Below, piece by piece: positions 4,708 to 41,210 of a stretch of DNA of 64,000 nucleotides (the first letter of the stretch is position 1; every line of letters starts with the position of its first letter). The DNA is taken from IMG/VR virus record IMGVR_UViG_3300042888_002665; one strand, given 5' to 3'. The notes beneath the pieces are model-generated. The model had not been told where the DNA came from. It worked only from the letters and a program-made list of their open reading frames with translations, and searched no databases. The position numbers were made by a program, and so were the translations under genes. This DNA is from a virus.

Positions 4708-5561
4708 GCCATAAAATTGATTTCTTTATCTACTACTGTTGCATGCTTATACTGATAGTCAGCTAATGTCATTGTAATCAATCCATTATCTTTACCTAAT
4801 TCATCATATAACACTCTATACATTGGTTCAAAGTCAGATATACTATTATCTACTAAGTATTGTCTGACTGATTTAAATGCGTCTTTACCTTGAATTAATT
4901 TAATTACATCTTGTATATCAAATCTAGTACCAGCTTTAACAAGAGTTAACTTACCATCAATACTATTCTGTTGAGTTACATTGATGATTTTACGAATATC
5001 TGGATAGAAATTAGTAACGATAGCAGATATGTCTGGTAGGTTATATGTAGTATTTTCTGCTTCTAATATAGAAACTAAATGACGAGCAATATCTGGTTTA
5101 GATAATGTTTCGATTTTGAATGCTTGGCATCTAGATTGTAATGGTTCAATAATACGCTCAACGTAATTACAAGTTAGAATGAAGCGTGTTTTAGCTGAGA
5201 ATGTTTCGATTATATTACGTAATGATGCTTGTGCGTTGATAGTTAAATAATCGGACTCATCTAGTATTACTACCTTTAATGGTTGGAATGTAGATGTAGA
5301 AGCGAATGATTTTACTTTATCACGAATCGTATCAATACCGTTTTCGTCTGATGCATTGATATACATCATATCACAGTTGATATTCTGAGTGATTAATTTA
5401 GCTAATGTAGTTTTACCTGTACCTGCTTTACCGTATAATAATAAGTGTGGAATATCGTTTTTTAAAATCCAACTACCGATTGTAGTTTTTAATTCTGAAT
5501 TGCCAATGTATTGATCTAATGTTTGTGAGCGGTACTTTTCAGTCCAAAGAGTGTGTTGCAT
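4674..5561 (-). CDS. clamp loader large subunit / RFC-like AAA+ ATPase (T4 gp44-like)
   Basis: LWTEKYR, Walker A GKAGTGKTT, Walker B VVILDESD, SRC motif. Confidence 0.95.
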   Translation of the reverse strand: MQHTLWTEKYRSQTLDQYIGNSELKTTIGSWILKNDIPHLLLYGKAGTGKTTLAKLITQNINCDMMYINASDENGIDTIRDKVKSFASTSTFQPLKVVILDESDYLTINAQASLRNIIETFSAKTRFILTCNYVERIIEPLQSRCQAFKIETLSKPDIARHLVSILEAENTTYNLPDISAIVTNFYPDIRKIINVTQQNSIDGKLTLVKAGTRFDIQDVIKLIQGKDAFKSVRQYLVDNSISDFEPMYRVLYDELGKDNGLITMTLADYQYKHATVVDKEINFMACIASIINIIK

Positions 5562-5562
5562 A

Positions 5563-6530: not shown

Positions 6531-6533
6531 AAA

Positions 6534-6650
6534 TGGGGGATTGAAAAAGCCCGGCCCCCGTCCGTCCAACCAACGATTTGGCCCACGCGCAGTTCTTATG
6601 GGATGCTTAATGGTGATTTCGATCTAGCTGCCCTGCAGAACAGACTAGCG
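6534..6650 (-). ncRNA. GC-rich putative structured RNA between the tRNA-like element and tRNA(CAU)
   Basis: GC-rich island in an AT-rich genome; stems CTAG-CTGTTC/GGGCAG-CTAG, CCCA/TGGG and GGGGG/CCCCC. Confidence 0.4.
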
Positions 6651-6655
6651 GTATG

Positions 6656-6833
6656 CTGTAGTGGGTGGATTCGAACCACCATAGGGCAATTAGGTAAAGG
6701 ACAATAGCGCTTGCAAGCTGGTGGTCTACCCCGATATCCTTACTTTATTTCGTTATTCCCCGCCCCCGAGACAGGAGGGTGCGTATGCCTCAGATTAGAG
6801 ATACTATCTCTTTTCTTCTTTCGCCACACTACA
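6656..6833 (-). ncRNA. 178-nt tRNA-like RNA (GUC anticodon) with insertions in the D-loop and variable arm
   Basis: acceptor TGTAGTG/CACTACA, D-stem GCG/CGC, anticodon arm CCCTC-CTGTCTC-GGGGG, T-arm GGTGG-TTCGAAT-CCACC; 44-nt D region, 82-nt variable region. Confidence 0.7.
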
Positions 6834-6839
6834 ATTTAT

Positions 6840-7256
6840 TTACTTTAAATCTAACTCTAATTGATTACTTCCTGTCGTTGGTTGTTGTTGTGGTAATGTA
6901 GATGTATAACTCCAATTAGAACCACTAGGATTCCACAACGTCGTTGTAGATGGATTATATGTAATAGTTCCACCACTTCCGGTTGCCACCGTCAATATTC
7001 CACTAGTTGTACCACAATGTATCTTATATGGATTAAATGGGTCTGATGGGTATGGTTGGATAAATGGTATTGTTTGTATTGGTGCTGAATTTGGTGTTCC
7101 CCATCCACCTTCACCAATCGGAGAACCATAATCAGGGCAGTCTTTAATTTTGTCCAATTCCGAAACAATGGTTTCCCATTGCTTCGGTGTTGGTCCTTCT
7201 TCATTTACTGCTTTAGTAAATCCTTTAAGCCAGAATATAAATTGTTCCTTATTCAT
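6840..7256 (-). CDS. hypothetical protein, Pro/Thr-rich C-terminus
   Basis: MNKEQFIFWLKGF...W..I N-terminus typical of small phage proteins. Confidence 0.65.
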   Translation of the reverse strand: MNKEQFIFWLKGFTKAVNEEGPTPKQWETIVSELDKIKDCPDYGSPIGEGGWGTPNSAPIQTIPFIQPYPSDPFNPYKIHCGTTSGILTVATGSGGTITYNPSTTTLWNPSGSNWSYTSTLPQQQPTTGSNQLELDLK

Positions 7257-8877
7257 ACATGTTTATGTCTACTGGTTGGTCTGATTTTTTATCTTCAGGT
7301 TTATTATATACAATCGATTCTGTAATCAAAATCGTACCTGCAACTGATACTGCGTTTTCTAATGCTAATCGAGTTACTTTAGTAGGATCGATAATACCAT
7401 CATTAATTAGATTATTAATGGTTTTAGTTTTTAGATTGTATCCATGTTCTGAAGTAACATCAGATAATCGATTTACAATACCGAATGATTCTAAATTTTC
7501 GTATCCGGCATTAGATAATATCTTTAGGAATGGAGAAGTACAAGCACGATAAACAATATCACGTCCTAAATCTAAATCTACATTATCGTATTTTTTATCA
7601 GCTAGTACTTGACGAGCATGAATTAAAGCAACTCCACCACCAGGTAATATACCTTCCTGTAGGGCTGCTTTGGTTGCGTGTAAAGCATCATCAACACGGT
7701 CCTTTTTCTCTCTCATTTCTACTTCCGTAGGAGCGCCGATATTAATTACTGCTACACCACCTGATAATTTGCCTAAACGTTCTTGTAATTTTTCACGTTC
7801 AAACATTGATTTAGCATTATCGATTTGTTGTTTTAAATCATCAATACGTTGCTCAATTTCCTCAACATTACCTTTACCATCAACAATTGTAGTTGTTTCT
7901 TTAGCCACTGTAACTAAGCGAGCCGAACCTAGCCAATCGGAATTGAATTTCTCCAATTTCATTCCCTTTTCTGGTGAGATAACTTGCCCGCCTGTTACTG
8001 TAGCAATGTCTTCTAAGATATGCAAACGGCGATCTCCAAAATCAGGTGCTTTAACTACTGCTGCTTTTAGAATACCACGCATTTTATTTACTAATAATGT
8101 TGATAGCGCTTCACCATCAATATCTTCAGCAATAACTAACAATTCATCATTTGATTGTGATAATGAATTTAGTAATGGTAGTAATTCTTTAACTTGAGTT
8201 AAACGACCATTATACAATAAAATCTTAGGATTGTTTAATGTAGCAGTCATTGTATCGTTATTTGTAACAAAGTATAATGATTTATATCCCTTATCGATTT
8301 GGATACCTTCTACAATCTCTAATGATGTTTCGCCAATACGAGATTCCTCTACTGTAACTACACCATCTACACCTACTGCTTGCATTGCTTCAGAAATTAA
8401 TGCACCGATTTCCTCATCACCATTAGCTGAAATAACTGCTACTTGTTTGATTTGCTCGTCTGAAGTAATATCTTTGGATATTTCTTTGATTCGGGTAATA
8501 ATTTCTTTTGTTGCTTGCTCAATACCACGTTTAACTTCTACTGCATTTGATCCAGCTTTAATAGCGTTGAATCCGTCTGCAATCATAGTTGATGCAAGTA
8601 ATGTAGTTGTAGTAGTGCCATCACCAGCTAAATCAGCTGTTTTAATAGCTGCTTGCTTTAATAGTTGTGCTCCAATGTTTTCAATTGGATTTTCTAACTC
8701 AATAGAACGAGCAACCGTAACACCGTCTTTAGTTGATACTGGGTTTTCACCTGCATTATCGATAATTACGTTACGACCGTTTGGTCCTAATGTACACGTA
8801 ACTGCATCTGATAATTTGATGACGCCTTTTAATAATTTGGTTTTTGCGTCTTGATTAAATACTATTTGCTTACTCAT
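7249..8877 (-). CDS. groEL: chaperonin GroEL
   Basis: TLGPNGRNV, TKDGVTVA, AGDGTTT, GGGVAL motifs; 542 aa; no C-terminal GGM repeats. Confidence 0.98.
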   Translation of the reverse strand: MSKQIVFNQDAKTKLLKGVIKLSDAVTCTLGPNGRNVIIDNAGENPVSTKDGVTVARSIELENPIENIGAQLLKQAAIKTADLAGDGTTTTTLLASTMIADGFNAIKAGSNAVEVKRGIEQATKEIITRIKEISKDITSDEQIKQVAVISANGDEEIGALISEAMQAVGVDGVVTVEESRIGETSLEIVEGIQIDKGYKSLYFVTNNDTMTATLNNPKILLYNGRLTQVKELLPLLNSLSQSNDELLVIAEDIDGEALSTLLVNKMRGILKAAVVKAPDFGDRRLHILEDIATVTGGQVISPEKGMKLEKFNSDWLGSARLVTVAKETTTIVDGKGNVEEIEQRIDDLKQQIDNAKSMFEREKLQERLGKLSGGVAVINIGAPTEVEMREKKDRVDDALHATKAALQEGILPGGGVALIHARQVLADKKYDNVDLDLGRDIVYRACTSPFLKILSNAGYENLESFGIVNRLSDVTSEHGYNLKTKTINNLINDGIIDPTKVTRLALENAVSVAGTILITESIVYNKPEDKKSDQPVDINMYE

Positions 8878-37876: not shown

Positions 37877-38650
37877 CTAAACTTCCCTCTTGTCACCGTA
37901 TGCAATGATATGATCTCGTCCTGAAAAATTATATGAATGTGCTGTACAATAATCCAATACTATTGGATACATCTTAATTAATTCTTCACGAGTATCGCCA
38001 GCAGGCATAATCCATGTTTTATGTTTTGGTATATTAAAACGTTTTCTGAATGCCTCAATTTCATGCATCAATTCATCTGTACCGTCCCATACTGGTTTGA
38101 AATGGTAATTCTTATGGTATGCTAATAATTGACGAATTGCATCATATTTTTCTCTATACTTATTATGTTGATCAATCATTTTCTGATCTACAATTTTACC
38201 TTGTGGTGTTTCAACACCAATTACTGGAATTGAATTAGAGAATTTAGGTGATAATGAAATAACATCAATACGATGATCAGTAATTAGTGGATGTGATCCT
38301 TCGGTTTCAATAGTTACAATACCTTTTTTATCATGTAATGCTTTAAATAAATTAATTATTTCATTACACATTTCCGGGTGCATTGTAGGTGATCCACCAG
38401 TTAACATCAAATGATTAATATCCCAATTGTCAGAAAAGAATTTCTTAATATCATCTAATGTATATTTACCCTTTTCTGGATGAATTGATGTATACCATGA
38501 ATCACACCACCCACCTTCACCAAAGTAACACCTATGAGTACATCCTGTAGTACGTACAATGATGTGTGGTTTACCAGCTAGTGAACCTTCAGTTTGAACG
38601 CAACGATATACTTCAATTATCGGTTGATTTTTAGTATAATCTAGTGCCAT
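37877..38650 (-). CDS. queE: 7-carboxy-7-deazaguanine synthase (radical SAM)
   Basis: EVYRCVQTEG, RTTGCTHRC...WCDSWYT, LTGGSP, IETEG, SLSPK. Confidence 0.92.
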   Translation of the reverse strand: MALDYTKNQPIIEVYRCVQTEGSLAGKPHIIVRTTGCTHRCYFGEGGWCDSWYTSIHPEKGKYTLDDIKKFFSDNWDINHLMLTGGSPTMHPEMCNEIINLFKALHDKKGIVTIETEGSHPLITDHRIDVISLSPKFSNSIPVIGVETPQGKIVDQKMIDQHNKYREKYDAIRQLLAYHKNYHFKPVWDGTDELMHEIEAFRKRFNIPKHKTWIMPAGDTREELIKMYPIVLDYCTAHSYNFSGRDHIIAYGDKREV

Positions 38651-38864
38651 CTTGTTTTTCTTTTAATTTTAAACGTTTAGCTAATTTTTTATCTACAACT
38701 GCTTCTGCATTAATATTTACCTCAACGGTTTTCTTATTTGCATCGCGTACTTTAGTTTTCCATTCGGCTTTAGGAGCAAATGTCCATCCATGTACTTTTA
38801 CTTTTAGATCAGCATCTACATCTGATACTCTACGGATTTCATCTCCTTTTTTGATACACTTCAT
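38631..38864 (-). CDS. basic hypothetical protein
   Basis: MKCIKKGDEIRRVSD...GW.F.PK.EWK. Confidence 0.65.
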   Translation of the reverse strand: MKCIKKGDEIRRVSDVDADLKVKVHGWTFAPKAEWKTKVRDANKKTVEVNINAEAVVDKKLAKRLKLKEKQDGTRLY

Positions 38865-39001
38865 ATTTTGAATTTTAATTTAATTAATTGTTGAATATAA
38901 GTAAGAAACTGTACATCACCAGCGAGTACAGATAAAATGTTAGGATGTGCATCGCCGCACGATCCTAACAAATGACTAATAATGTGTCTAATTTCTTCCA
39001 T
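38861..39001 (-). CDS. small hypothetical protein (46 aa, not in ORF track)
   Basis: MEEIRHIISHLLGSCGDAHPNILSVL...; overlaps the queC stop and the next ATG. Confidence 0.5.
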   Translation of the reverse strand: MEEIRHIISHLLGSCGDAHPNILSVLAGDVQFLTYIQQLIKLKFKI

Positions 39002-39855
39002 TATTGCTGATATTCTGCTAATACTTGTTCTACTGCTGCTTTAGCAACTTCCCAACTAACTGGACCTGTTTCATCTTCATATTGAACTGGATCTTTACGT
39101 CCTAAACGAATAAACGCTTCAATACGCTCAACTGATGCCGCTGATTTGTAATCGCTATTTCCTGATGGATAAGGTTTGTATGATGTATTAGTACGTTTAT
39201 ATACTTCATCAAAATCTAAACCTAATTTCTCACAACATGCTAATCCGTCTTCCAAAATAGTAAATTTATTACCTTCTAAATACGGAGTATAGTGATATAC
39301 TAATTCAGAATCCCAGTTACCAATTTTAAATGCTTCCATATCAGCATCACGGAATTCCTGACGACAATCAGGGTAAATAGCGTGATCACCAGCGTGAATA
39401 CCCATTGCAATTGCTACTTCTTGTTTATCGCCTTTAGTTGCAACTGATAATGCTGCTGCTTGGATTAATGAAGCGAAAATCTTATTACGATTAGGTACAA
39501 CAGTTTCTTTCATGTTGTCTTGCTCGTAATGTCCTTCTGGTACATCGTTTCCACCTGTAACTAATGCTGAATGAAGTAAATTTTGCAATCCATCTAATTT
39601 AATGATTTGATGTTTTACTTTAGGATATGCTTCTTCAAATCCACCAATTACTTGATCAGTATGAGTAACACGCATTGGAGCCGTATTAATATACTCAACT
39701 AACGATGCTGCACGTTCTAATTCAACACGGTGTTTTTGCCCATAATCAAATCCTAATGCTGTAACTTCATAGCCATTAGCTAATAAGTGAAGTAATAATG
39801 TTGAGGAATCCATTCCTCCGGATAATGATAAAACTGCTTTTTTTGTACTAGACAT
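39001..39855 (-). CDS. queC: 7-cyano-7-deazaguanine synthase
   Basis: LSGGMDS, FDYGQKH, VVPNRN, GIHAGDHAIYPDCR. Confidence 0.95.
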   Translation of the reverse strand: MSSTKKAVLSLSGGMDSSTLLLHLLANGYEVTALGFDYGQKHRVELERAASLVEYINTAPMRVTHTDQVIGGFEEAYPKVKHQIIKLDGLQNLLHSALVTGGNDVPEGHYEQDNMKETVVPNRNKIFASLIQAAALSVATKGDKQEVAIAMGIHAGDHAIYPDCRQEFRDADMEAFKIGNWDSELVYHYTPYLEGNKFTILEDGLACCEKLGLDFDEVYKRTNTSYKPYPSGNSDYKSAASVERIEAFIRLGRKDPVQYEDETGPVSWEVAKAAVEQVLAEYQQ

Positions 39856-39875
39856 AAAATTTATAATATATAGTT

Positions 39876-39917
39876 GGAACGTATTAATTTATTGATCGAT
39901 TAGTTCCGATAACCGAT
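39876..39917 (-). promoter_or_regulatory. candidate H-type pseudoknot in the queC 5' UTR
   Basis: P1 ATCGGTTA/TAATCGAT, 2-nt L1, P2 GGAAC/GTTCC, A-rich 14-nt L3; lies between a promoter motif and the queC ATG. Confidence 0.55.
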
Positions 39918-39920
39918 TAT

Positions 39921-39939
39921 ATTAAATATAATTAAGAAA
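39921..39939 (-). promoter_or_regulatory. representative copy of promoter motif class 1 (TTTCYTnATTAnRTTTA), about 13 intergenic copies
   Basis: copies near 9491, 10819, 14151, 20535, 21550, 31422, 32196, 37689, 38899, 39930, 41853, 49422, 51199; resembles the Bacteroidota TAnnTTTG -7 element. Confidence 0.6.
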
Positions 39940-40419
39940 TTAAATAGGCATGTATTCCTCTTCGTATGAAGCTGAATTACGGCCATTTTCAAATACTTCT
40001 ACTTTAGCTACTCTAACTCTGTAATGTGTTTCGTCTTGAACAAATTCATTAATCTTTTTGAACAGATACTCAGCAAAACGTTCAGCACCTACATAAGGTA
40101 AAATACGTAATTGAATAATACCATCTTCACCCATTTGCTTGAATTGCTCTAAATATGGATCATCGTCTGAGATGATTGTAGTATGATCTAATAAATAGTC
40201 AAACCATTGTTTTGGGTTCATACCATCGATATTTCCATTGGCACGTTTCATACCACCGAAATCCCATACCCAATTGCGTTCGTCTAAATCTCCTTCAAAA
40301 TCTACTTTAAAGGATATAGCGTATCCATGTAAGAACCTACAGTGGGTTCCTTCTGCTCTCCATTGACGAAATACAGTGGAGAATCCATCAAATAATTTTG
40401 ATGATTTGAATGTAATCAT
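39940..40419 (-). CDS. queD: 6-carboxytetrahydropterin synthase
   Basis: HCRFLHGY, WVWDFG, LDHT, AERFAE, V.V.VFE...NSA. Confidence 0.93.
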   Translation of the reverse strand: MITFKSSKLFDGFSTVFRQWRAEGTHCRFLHGYAISFKVDFEGDLDERNWVWDFGGMKRANGNIDGMNPKQWFDYLLDHTTIISDDDPYLEQFKQMGEDGIIQLRILPYVGAERFAEYLFKKINEFVQDETHYRVRVAKVEVFENGRNSASYEEEYMPI

Positions 40420-41210
40420 GATAAAAGTGTTCTAAAATGTTTGACGTTATATAATACATCAGAAATCTGCTGATCCGATAATTTCTGATCAAAGTATGTT
40501 TCTAACTTTTCTTTTGGTTTATCTAACAATACTTCAGATGGATATCTACCGTGTTTTAAACCGTAAATAACTGGATTAGATGTATCGATTGTTTTGATAA
40601 ATGAATATTCTTTGCCTTTGTAGCTAGAGAATTCATTAGGTAATGTAGCACCTAATAAATGATGGTGAATTGTTTTATTAAATCCATTTAATGATGGTAA
40701 CATATTAACAAATTTAATACGTCCCGTCATTAAACTTAATAATTCATTTTGATGTTTATATAATTCCTTAAAATAAACCCCAGCATGATTTAATGCAATG
40801 TGTGTATAACCTAATTCAACGAATTTACTGTATGTAAGCATTGCATCAGATACCGTTTTTGCTTGTACTACTGCCATTAAATTAGTAGTAGATGGAATTT
40901 TATCTATATAATAATCAATCCATTTTTTAGCGTTTTTAACAGTTGTTTGAGGGTTATTCCATGCATCAGGAACGATGAATATACTTGGCTTAATATCATT
41001 GATTTTCTCGAGTAAATCTTCGATTGTATGCGATACTCCTTCAAATAAACCATTGTCCATAATGATTAAATCACCACGTTCAGATGCACTTTTAAAGAAT
41101 TGATAGTACTGTTTATTTTCTAATAAATGAGGTAAACAATAATGATAGTCATTAAACTTTAACGACTCATCTAATAGATCTAATGGTACTTCGTGTGAAA
41201 TAAGGGCCAT
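40416..41210 (-). CDS. TGT-fold guanine transglycosylase-like protein (DpdA-like)
   Basis: IIMDNGLFE, IVPD, AVVQ, HHLLG, IDTS motifs; ATGA-coupled to queD. Confidence 0.65.
   Translation of the reverse strand: MALISHEVPLDLLDESLKFNDYHYCLPHLLENKQYYQFFKSASERGDLIIMDNGLFEGVSHTIEDLLEKINDIKPSIFIVPDAWNNPQTTVKNAKKWIDYYIDKIPSTTNLMAVVQAKTVSDAMLTYSKFVELGYTHIALNHAGVYFKELYKHQNELLSLMTGRIKFVNMLPSLNGFNKTIHHHLLGATLPNEFSSYKGKEYSFIKTIDTSNPVIYGLKHGRYPSEVLLDKPKEKLETYFDQKLSDQQISDVLYNVKHFRTLLS

Follow-up and report, generated by a model that had tools for sequence, protein, structure and literature searches.

A giant tRNA-like RNA in an uncultivated phage belongs to a conserved, uncatalogued RNA family of Bacteroidota

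The locus and the architecture of the giant RNA

We analysed a 64,000-nt stretch of viral DNA (the window; IMG/VR record IMGVR_UViG_3300042888_002665), in which positions are numbered from the first letter. Its minus strand carries, in this order, a phage GroEL gene (7249-8877), a 138-aa ORF (6840-7256), a giant RNA, a spacer and a gene for tRNA-Met(CAU) (6530-6456). The chaperonin is of the GroEL type (Cpn60, E 8e-70), while the 138-aa ORF, which has no Pfam match, ends 6 nt ahead of the giant RNA. The latter lies within a 309-nt non-coding stretch (6531-6839) that has about 50% G+C in a genome of about 30%, and it reads as a full tRNA cloverleaf of 178 nt on the minus strand (6833 to 6656).

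Modelled with the family covariance model R1, the whole gene runs from position -1 to C74 (6655..6834, minus strand, as are all features that follow). The mature RNA is probably 6833 to 6656 with CCA added or completed, CCA being incompletely encoded at the 3' end of the gene (6655..6663). The acceptor stem is formed by UGUAGUG (6833-6827) and CACUACA (6663-6657), with G73 at 6656 and C74 at 6655, and all 7 of its pairs covary. A 3-bp D stem, GCG/CGC (6824-6822 / 6783-6781), in which pairs 10:25 and 11:24 covary, closes a D arm of 44 nt (6781..6824), compared with the 17-20 nt that are usual for this region. The arm holds A14-A15, G18-G19 and, in the 5' part of its loop, a 27-nt insert with the hairpin AGAGAU-AGU-AUCUCU (6811-6797), flanked by GAAGAA and AAUCUGA. 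Covariation is seen in all 5 stem pairs of the anticodon arm CCCUC-CUGUCUC-GGGGG (6779-6763), which presents G34-U35-C36 (GUC, 6772-6770) followed by U37 and C38. The 82-nt variable domain (6762-6681) is built from PV1 (GGGG/CCCU, 6761-6758 / 6686-6683), a 5-nt bulge, PV1b (CGA/UUG, 6752-6750 / 6689-6687), an internal loop (AAUAAA / CCUAA) and PV2 (6743-6735 / 6703-6694), all three helices covarying, and it ends in two apical hairpins. One of these, GGGG-UAGA-CC(A)CC (6720..6732), is nearly invariant in the family; the other has at its apex a perfect 10-nt palindrome, GCUUGCAAGC (6709..6718), a candidate dimerisation site. The T arm, GGUGG-UUCGAAU-CCACC (6680-6664), combines an invariant loop with a stem in which 4 of 5 pairs covary. 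Every helix is intact when this phage's copy is aligned to the family model.

An earlier note, made from the letters of the window, had described four tRNA arms with a GUC anticodon, and each was found in its place on the minus strand; with the 7/5 branch, the T loop, G18-G19, U8 and covarying stems, the cloverleaf is complete. The 44-nt D region with its hairpin and the 82-nt variable region that the note had reported hold as well. Its long branched variable stem stands as far as the branching is concerned, but the continuous helix GGGGAAU/AUUGCCC does not, since covariation points to GGGG/CCCU, a 5-nt bulge and CGA/UUG instead.

The GC-rich spacer that follows (6531-6654) is itself a conserved structured element with no match in Rfam. 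It goes with the 5' side of tRNA-Met rather than with the giant RNA: it is found again at two other loci (L048 and L347), immediately precedes tRNA-Met at L345, where a giant RNA is missing upstream, and is absent from L016, where the giant RNA and tRNA-Met are 3 nt apart. Its 3' part has the look of an H-type pseudoknot, with compensatory changes (GGGGG/CCCCC versus GGAGG/CCUCU). An HDV-like 3'-processing ribozyme in this spacer was considered and rejected, as no P1 complement is visible, Rfam gave no match and the element goes with tRNA-Met.

A family shared by phages and Bacteroidota chromosomes

Standard detectors are silent on this gene. ARAGORN made no call on it and called six ordinary tRNAs elsewhere in the 64-kb stretch, and Rfam 15 gave no match to this phage's copy, RF00005 included, even at E <= 10; the comparison with ARAGORN and Rfam that the earlier note had proposed thus ended with no call on this copy and no Rfam family that covers the RNA. 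A phage homologue lacking the D insert reached 29.2 bits against an RF00005 threshold of 29, and the four bacterial copies tested had no Rfam match whatsoever. Folded on its own, this phage's sequence is unremarkable (z = -0.45 relative to shuffles). With the detectors silent and the lone fold ordinary, the single-sequence case is weak and the proof is comparative. As tRNA finders miss them, genes for the giant RNA go unannotated in phage and Bacteroidota genomes.

Phage copies were first collected by exact-motif scans of IMG/VR. A scan seeded only on the D arm and anticodon loop and another seeded only on the variable domain and T loop each gave at least 120 loci, and at least about 140 distinct phage copies could be parsed among the IMG/VR matches listed. 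Using the variable-domain pattern, about 70 distinct chromosomal copies were found in Bacteroidota, carried by Chitinophaga (one complete genome), Pedobacter, Spirosoma, Arcicella, Flectobacillus, Cyclobacteriaceae, Saprospiraceae and Lewinellaceae. In an alignment of 84 sequences with 40 pairs in 9 helices, 96.2% of paired cells can pair, compared with about 43-54% when the partners are slid, and 32 of the 40 pairs show double changes; none of 500 shuffles reached the observed values of pairing and covariation. Both inserts, which the earlier note had held to be structured and under selection, have homologues with compensatory changes, and a covariance model, which the note had advised, was built from this alignment.

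The resulting model R1 matches this phage's copy, itself among the 84 seeds, over the full model length with 140.7 bits (E 2e-41). Full-length matches of at least 74 bits were obtained in about 16 of 151 sampled Bacteroidota genomes, while ordinary class II tRNAs score about 55 bits. The R1 search found one family copy in the nearest phage record, and blastn at a distant setting with three family types as queries found no relatives among GenBank phages. The giant RNA is a real gene under purifying selection for its fold, and the family is common to Bacteroidota chromosomes and many uncultivated phages. As judged from the alignments, neither chance nor decay explains it. No description of the family was found in the open-access papers searched, one of the searches being by sequence motif. 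The family is absent from Rfam 15 and is uncatalogued.

Family anatomy and conserved positions

We defined the family by a class II body, U1-A72, G73, C74, an NNGUCUC loop and a variable domain made of PV1, bulge, PV1b, internal loop, PV2 and a GGGUWGACCAC hairpin; this phage's copy has every one of these motifs. The body comprises a 7-bp acceptor stem, a 5-bp T stem and a 3-bp D stem with a Leu-type loop (AAAUUGGCAGA). A14, A15, G18-G19, U48 and the loop UUCGAAU are all present, so the L-shaped core should form, and the T loop and the GG are invariant across the family. In the variable domain, a 4-bp PV1, a bulge of 4-5 nt on the 5' side and a 3-bp PV1b lead to an internal loop whose two strands read RAUARR and either YUAA or UGAA. 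PV2, of 9-11 bp and commonly with a one-base bulge, tops out in a junction with the near-invariant hairpin N-GGG-UWGA-CC-A-C-N', whose closing pair covaries (GC 47, UA 13, AU 2). In phages a second, variable apical hairpin sits at this junction. The architecture of the domain is otherwise alike in phage and bacterial copies, and its sequence is the most conserved part of the RNA, above the tRNA stems.

Two tertiary contacts of the domain were considered and discarded. A pseudoknot between its CCACC and the T stem is contradicted by a T stem that covaries while CCACC stays fixed, and pairing of GUC with the GAC of the apical hairpin shows no covariation, minimal members without that hairpin keeping GUC all the same. 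Position -1 was a pyrimidine opposite G73 in the first 13 copies, but it is A, U or C family-wide; with A in 17 of 70 bacterial copies, an eighth acceptor pair giving an 8/5 branch like that of tRNA-Sec or allo-tRNAs was also rejected. A tmRNA, its permuted form included, does not fit either: pair 3:70 is U-A and not G3-U70, the anticodon arm is full, and neither ARAGORN nor Rfam made a call.

The terminal pair is U1-A72 in 70 of 70 bacterial copies and, among the matches listed, in 133 of 138 phage copies, the other 5 having A-U. G2-C71, G73 and C74 are essentially invariant in bacterial and phage copies alike. In the anticodon loop, the bacterial copies that were aligned with R1 without regard to the loop have G34-U35-C36 in 67 of 67 cases; all parsed phage copies have GUC too, a count that is partly built in because parsing required GUC, so the bacterial figure is the cleaner one. 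C38 is found in 67 of 67 bacterial copies and in nearly all phage copies among the matches listed. The earlier note had called U37 atypical, which it is in this phage's copy, and U37 also occurs in 66 of 67 R1-aligned bacterial copies. Phage copies mostly have U as well (C in 8 and A in 1 among the matches listed), and a pyrimidine occupies position 37 in >99% of the family copies among the matches listed. Position 33 is normally the most conserved base of an anticodon loop. Here it is the least conserved one, being U, C, G or A across the family (U 50, C 13 and G 3 in bacterial copies; U, C and, in 7 copies among the matches listed, A in phages). The canonical combination of U33 with a purine at 37 is therefore not seen in this phage's copy, which has U33 but U37. 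Position 10 is mostly A or U, not G, in bacterial copies and mixed in phages.

Comparison with known tRNAs

Canonical tRNA-Asp genes stand beside the family RNA in the three host genomes checked (Chitinophaga 3, Pedobacter 2, Spirosoma 1), and 17 of 141 phage loci among the matches listed also hold a 72-77-nt tRNA-Asp(gtc), 16 of them with a typical family member. The giant RNA exists beside canonical tRNA-Asp, not instead of it. In the host tRNA-Asp genes the loop is CUGUCAC, the terminal pair is G1-C72 and the variable loop is short, and the genes likewise end in G73-C74; this shared gene end suggests ordinary 3' maturation. The two kinds of RNA have in common GUC, C38, G73, G2-C71, UUCGAAU and G18-G19 besides the gene end. 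They differ in the terminal pair (G1-C72 in tRNA-Asp, U1-A72 here), in position 37 (A37 versus U37), in position 33, which is unfixed here, and in size, a 4-5-nt variable loop and about 77 nt standing against an 82-nt domain and 178 nt. The class II body, the Leu-type D arm and the D-loop hairpin further set the giant RNA apart.

The strong aspartate determinants are G73, G34, U35, C36 and C38 (PMC9976931), and all five are present in this phage's copy and conserved in the family. G1-C72, which helps to place the 3' end, is strictly conserved in bacterial tRNA-Asp (PMC9976931). The family has U1-A72 instead, which counts against recognition by AspRS, as does, for our main reading, the unconserved G10. 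Further, AspRS, a class II synthetase, approaches tRNA from the side of the variable loop, so that the 82-nt arm might clash, and G73 combined with a long arm equally serves as the identity set for serine in bacteria. Nevertheless, conservation of the five aspartate determinants together with relaxation of U33 and replacement of purine 37 is the pattern expected if the loop is read by AspRS and not by the ribosome or TGT, and we infer from it that AspRS may be the reader of the anticodon loop.

A link to TGT had been drawn in the earlier note from U33-G34-U35 and the que genes of this phage. It finds no support in the comparison, since TGT needs U33, the least conserved loop position, and QueC, QueD and QueE are 31 kb away. 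The genes themselves, for a QueE-like (radical-SAM) protein, QueC and QueD, lie at 37877-40419 on the minus strand, adjoined by a 264-aa ORF (40416-41210, minus strand) without a Pfam match.

Among other tRNAs, the allo-tRNAs of bacteria and phages are the nearest comparators in print: they are long-armed, GUC is predominant among their anticodons, and a non-decoding or regulatory role has been considered possible for them (PMC5389517). Like the giant RNA, they join a long arm to an anticodon that is not one for serine, leucine or tyrosine (Mukai et al. 2017, PMC5389517). They differ in having a 12-bp branch of the 8/4 or 9/3 type, whereas the branch of the present family is 7/5 with all pairs covarying, and in combining diverse anticodons with ordinary long arms, whereas GUC is fixed here and the branched domain of 75-90 nt is conserved. 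Bacterial tRNA-Leu, a class II tRNA (RF00005), shares the D arm GYG-AAAUUGGCAGA-CRC with its 3-bp stem and an arm that emerges at the same place, but it has A73, in contrast to the G73, the GUC and the giant conserved arm found here. The genes for rnaC and rnaD of phage T4, and for other tRNA-scaffolded phage RNAs, are of the stable-RNA type and lie in clusters of tRNA genes, and the tRNA machinery presumably processes their products. The giant RNA is similar in this respect, but no relation in sequence or structure was seen, and it differs in keeping a complete anticodon arm and in having relatives on bacterial chromosomes.

Phage-specific hairpins

Two elements of this phage's copy are largely phage-specific additions, as far as the collected sequences indicate: the D-loop hairpin and the palindromic apical hairpin. 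D-loop inserts of 9-27 nt occur in 67 of 138 phage copies among the matches listed versus 1 of 70 bacterial copies (Fisher p about 1e-19 for those sets that were seeded alike). They sit in the 5' part of the loop, and that of this phage is the longest regular one. In its place the closest syntenic relative (L016, flanks 91% identical) has GCGUACGC, another relative at 85% has no insert, and a third (L344) keeps the flanks GAAGAA ... AAUCUGA around a wholly different stem, GGGGU/ACUCC, that is still paired. In this last case the hairpin is kept and its sequence is not. On the evidence of these comparisons, the D-loop hairpin is retained while its sequence changes fast, even between close relatives. 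One class of phage D inserts (L134, L141, L149, L029, L030 and others) has a stem of 6-7 bp and a 7-nt loop, CUCWGUU, and looks like an anticodon stem-loop set within the D loop.

The apical hairpin contains a perfect palindrome of at least 8 nt (8-12 nt) in 82% of 135 phage copies among the matches listed. The corresponding shares are 4.6% for shuffles and 14.5% for bacterial copies, most of which have no hairpin at this second apical site. At least 15 different palindromes were seen, and their central four bases are also self-complementary, which goes beyond the needs of a simple hairpin. Folded alone, GCUUGCAAGC is predicted to form a weak hairpin (-1.5 kcal/mol) and a duplex of -19.1 kcal/mol; for the whole domain the predicted gain on dimer formation is -15.5 kcal/mol, versus -5.8 to -10.7 kcal/mol with the palindrome shuffled. 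According to these folding calculations, pairing between RNA molecules would be the simplest reading of the palindrome at the RNA level. At the DNA level, a recent inverted duplication could be an alternative source.

Genomic context

Other tRNAs are present at 87 of 141 phage loci among the matches listed. The phage neighbourhoods show lineage synteny only, with no conserved protein partner among the neighbouring genes. At 53 of 69 bacterial loci the RNA has, about 170 bp upstream and in divergent orientation, a gene for an Lrp/AsnC-family regulator, which sufB follows in 18; this synteny is deeply conserved across the bacterial loci L218-L337. Downstream, an AMP-binding enzyme is encoded at 13 bacterial loci, and TrmB, a member of the methyltransferase family that makes m7G46 in the variable loop of tRNAs, about 124 nt from the RNA at 8. 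The copies most like that of this phage come from Arcicella and Flectobacillus, which is a weak hint at a freshwater Cytophagales host.

Proposed role and alternatives

The giant RNA is this phage's own copy of a conserved, uncatalogued Bacteroidota RNA with a class II body and a 7/5 branch. As to its function, our main reading, on which we are evenly divided, is that it may be an RNA that is processed like a tRNA and recognised by AspRS, that carries a domain for docking a partner and that is probably no routine decoder. It would be transcribed together with its neighbours, from the phage GroEL gene through the 138-aa ORF, the giant RNA and the leader element to tRNA-Met, and would then be excised and finished in the manner of a tRNA, through RNase P, trimming at the 3' end and completion of CCA, given that the elbow and the core elements which these enzymes read are all intact. 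AspRS would bind it and probably charge it, since the family conserves precisely G73, G34, U35, C36 and C38. Routine decoding of GAY codons is improbable in view of the free position 33, the selected pyrimidine 37, U1-A72 in place of G1-C72 and an arm of the size of a tRNA. The near-invariant variable domain may serve as a docking handle for a putative partner, and phage copies may pair two by two via the apical palindrome. The suggestion of the earlier note that the RNA is a scaffold is compatible with this reading. Sorted by function alone, we are of two minds about an off-ribosome or otherwise specialised role, consider an ordinary or special-purpose decoder a lesser but real prospect, and leave little room for anything else.

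The main rival is an ornamented but working tRNA-Asp isoacceptor that reads GAC/GAU, in which the arm and the D hairpin are tolerated ornaments or recruit a factor as in tRNA-Sec. We find this possible, though doubtful. While GUC is invariant, the cloverleaf, T loop, G18-G19 and A15-U48 core are intact and phage copies are placed in tRNA arrays, a decoder would hardly leave position 33 to any of the four bases and select a pyrimidine at 37. It would also be redundant with canonical tRNA-Asp in the three host genomes and, among the matches listed, at 16 phage loci, and an arm more conserved than the tRNA stems speaks for a specific partner.

A more far-reaching form of our main reading, which we put forward as unlikely but worth stating, is that the family may be a new class of tRNA-derived RNA. 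Its aspartate marks would be kept only for making, maturation and binding by the tRNA machinery, and its domain would dock a dedicated partner away from ordinary decoding, with the dimer and the D-loop hairpin added in phages. The self-complementary apex would join two molecules, which could bind with high avidity to tRNA enzymes that are themselves dimeric, AspRS for instance, and the fast-changing D-loop hairpin might set the phage copy apart from the host copy.

The earlier note had also raised a decoy. On this account the phage copy lures tRNA-targeting defences, or replaces a tRNA with a nuclease-resistant version, its hairpins acting as shield or bait. The two elaborations are indeed largely confined to phages, the D hairpin changes quickly among close relatives, and some anticodon nucleases attack anticodon loops of the GUN type. 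Yet the family is chromosomal in Bacteroidota themselves with conserved synteny, so that anti-defence cannot be its primary role, and no defence or counter-defence gene is consistently adjacent in phages; we consider this explanation improbable.

It is quite improbable that the giant RNA is a serine-accepting RNA of the allo-tRNA kind, charged by SerRS through G73 and the long arm and acting by missense incorporation or regulation through its aspartate anticodon. The kinship is attractive in that allo-tRNAs are class II, are often borne by phages and have GUC as one of three predominant anticodons (PMC5389517). G73, G2-C71 and the long arm are all present here, but the acceptor/T branch is 7/5, not 8/4 or 9/3, and the D arm is Leu-type. 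Moreover, SerRS does not read the anticodon, which would leave the family-wide invariance of GUC and C38 unexplained.

An off-ribosome carrier on which aspartate is amidated to asparagine by GatCAB, with U1-A72 as the amidotransferase determinant, is very improbable. U1-A72 does replace the antideterminant G1-C72, and GatB is found in every RNA-carrying genome; however, GatB occurs in 126 of 151 sampled Bacteroidota genomes regardless of the RNA, and with the protein nearly ubiquitous in the phylum this co-occurrence is uninformative. Similarly, the divergent upstream regulator at 53 of 69 bacterial loci, which could be read in favour of such a link, is only generically of the Lrp/AsnC family, and sufB follows it.

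A tRNA-Asp gene with two removable introns or mobile inserts, as the earlier note had also considered, or a decayed pseudogene is barely credible: both inserts lie in loops and the D insert comes and goes between close relatives, but conservation of the variable domain spans bacteria and phages, with covarying pairs, and exceeds that of the tRNA stems, an insert-free RNA would still carry U37 and U1-A72, no intron family in Rfam matches, and the helices of this phage's copy are all intact.

If our main reading is true, a single bacterial phylum, together with many of its phages, keeps a tRNA-shaped RNA whose conserved extra domain equals a tRNA in size, and the range of cargo known for the tRNA scaffold would be wider. 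The family would also be a natural system in which to ask what large appendages mean for AspRS, RNase P, the CCA-adding enzyme and the ribosome, and the contrast between host and phage copies, with a palindromic apex and a fast-changing D hairpin in the latter, would provide a handle on what phages need from it.

Further observations at related loci

At the syntenic loci L006 (10355-10493) and L164 the site of the spacer described above is taken by a different one, of about 140-190 nt, which leads from the giant RNA to the next tRNA. Its 7-bp stem UCUCAUC/GAUGAGA is superficially like a hammerhead core, an idea that was dropped because CUGAUGAG is one strand of that stem and Rfam gave no match. 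Directly downstream of the giant RNA at L017 (about 1380-1480), and also at L010 and L011, lies a gene that resembles tRNA-Thr(UGU) and whose D arm is irregular; ARAGORN made no call on it.

About ten bacterial loci hold tandem pairs in which a short copy of 110-124 nt and a long one of 143-175 nt are separated by about 70-80 nt, as in L286 (5233-5342 with 5416-5562), L295, L218, L278, L243 and L260. Another bacterial genome (G139) has tandem members of 111-112 nt with a short variable domain at L348 (169-280 and 391-501). Their loop is CUUUCUC, with the glutamate anticodon UUC; it is the sole departure from G34 seen, and these copies stand outside the 67-copy set.
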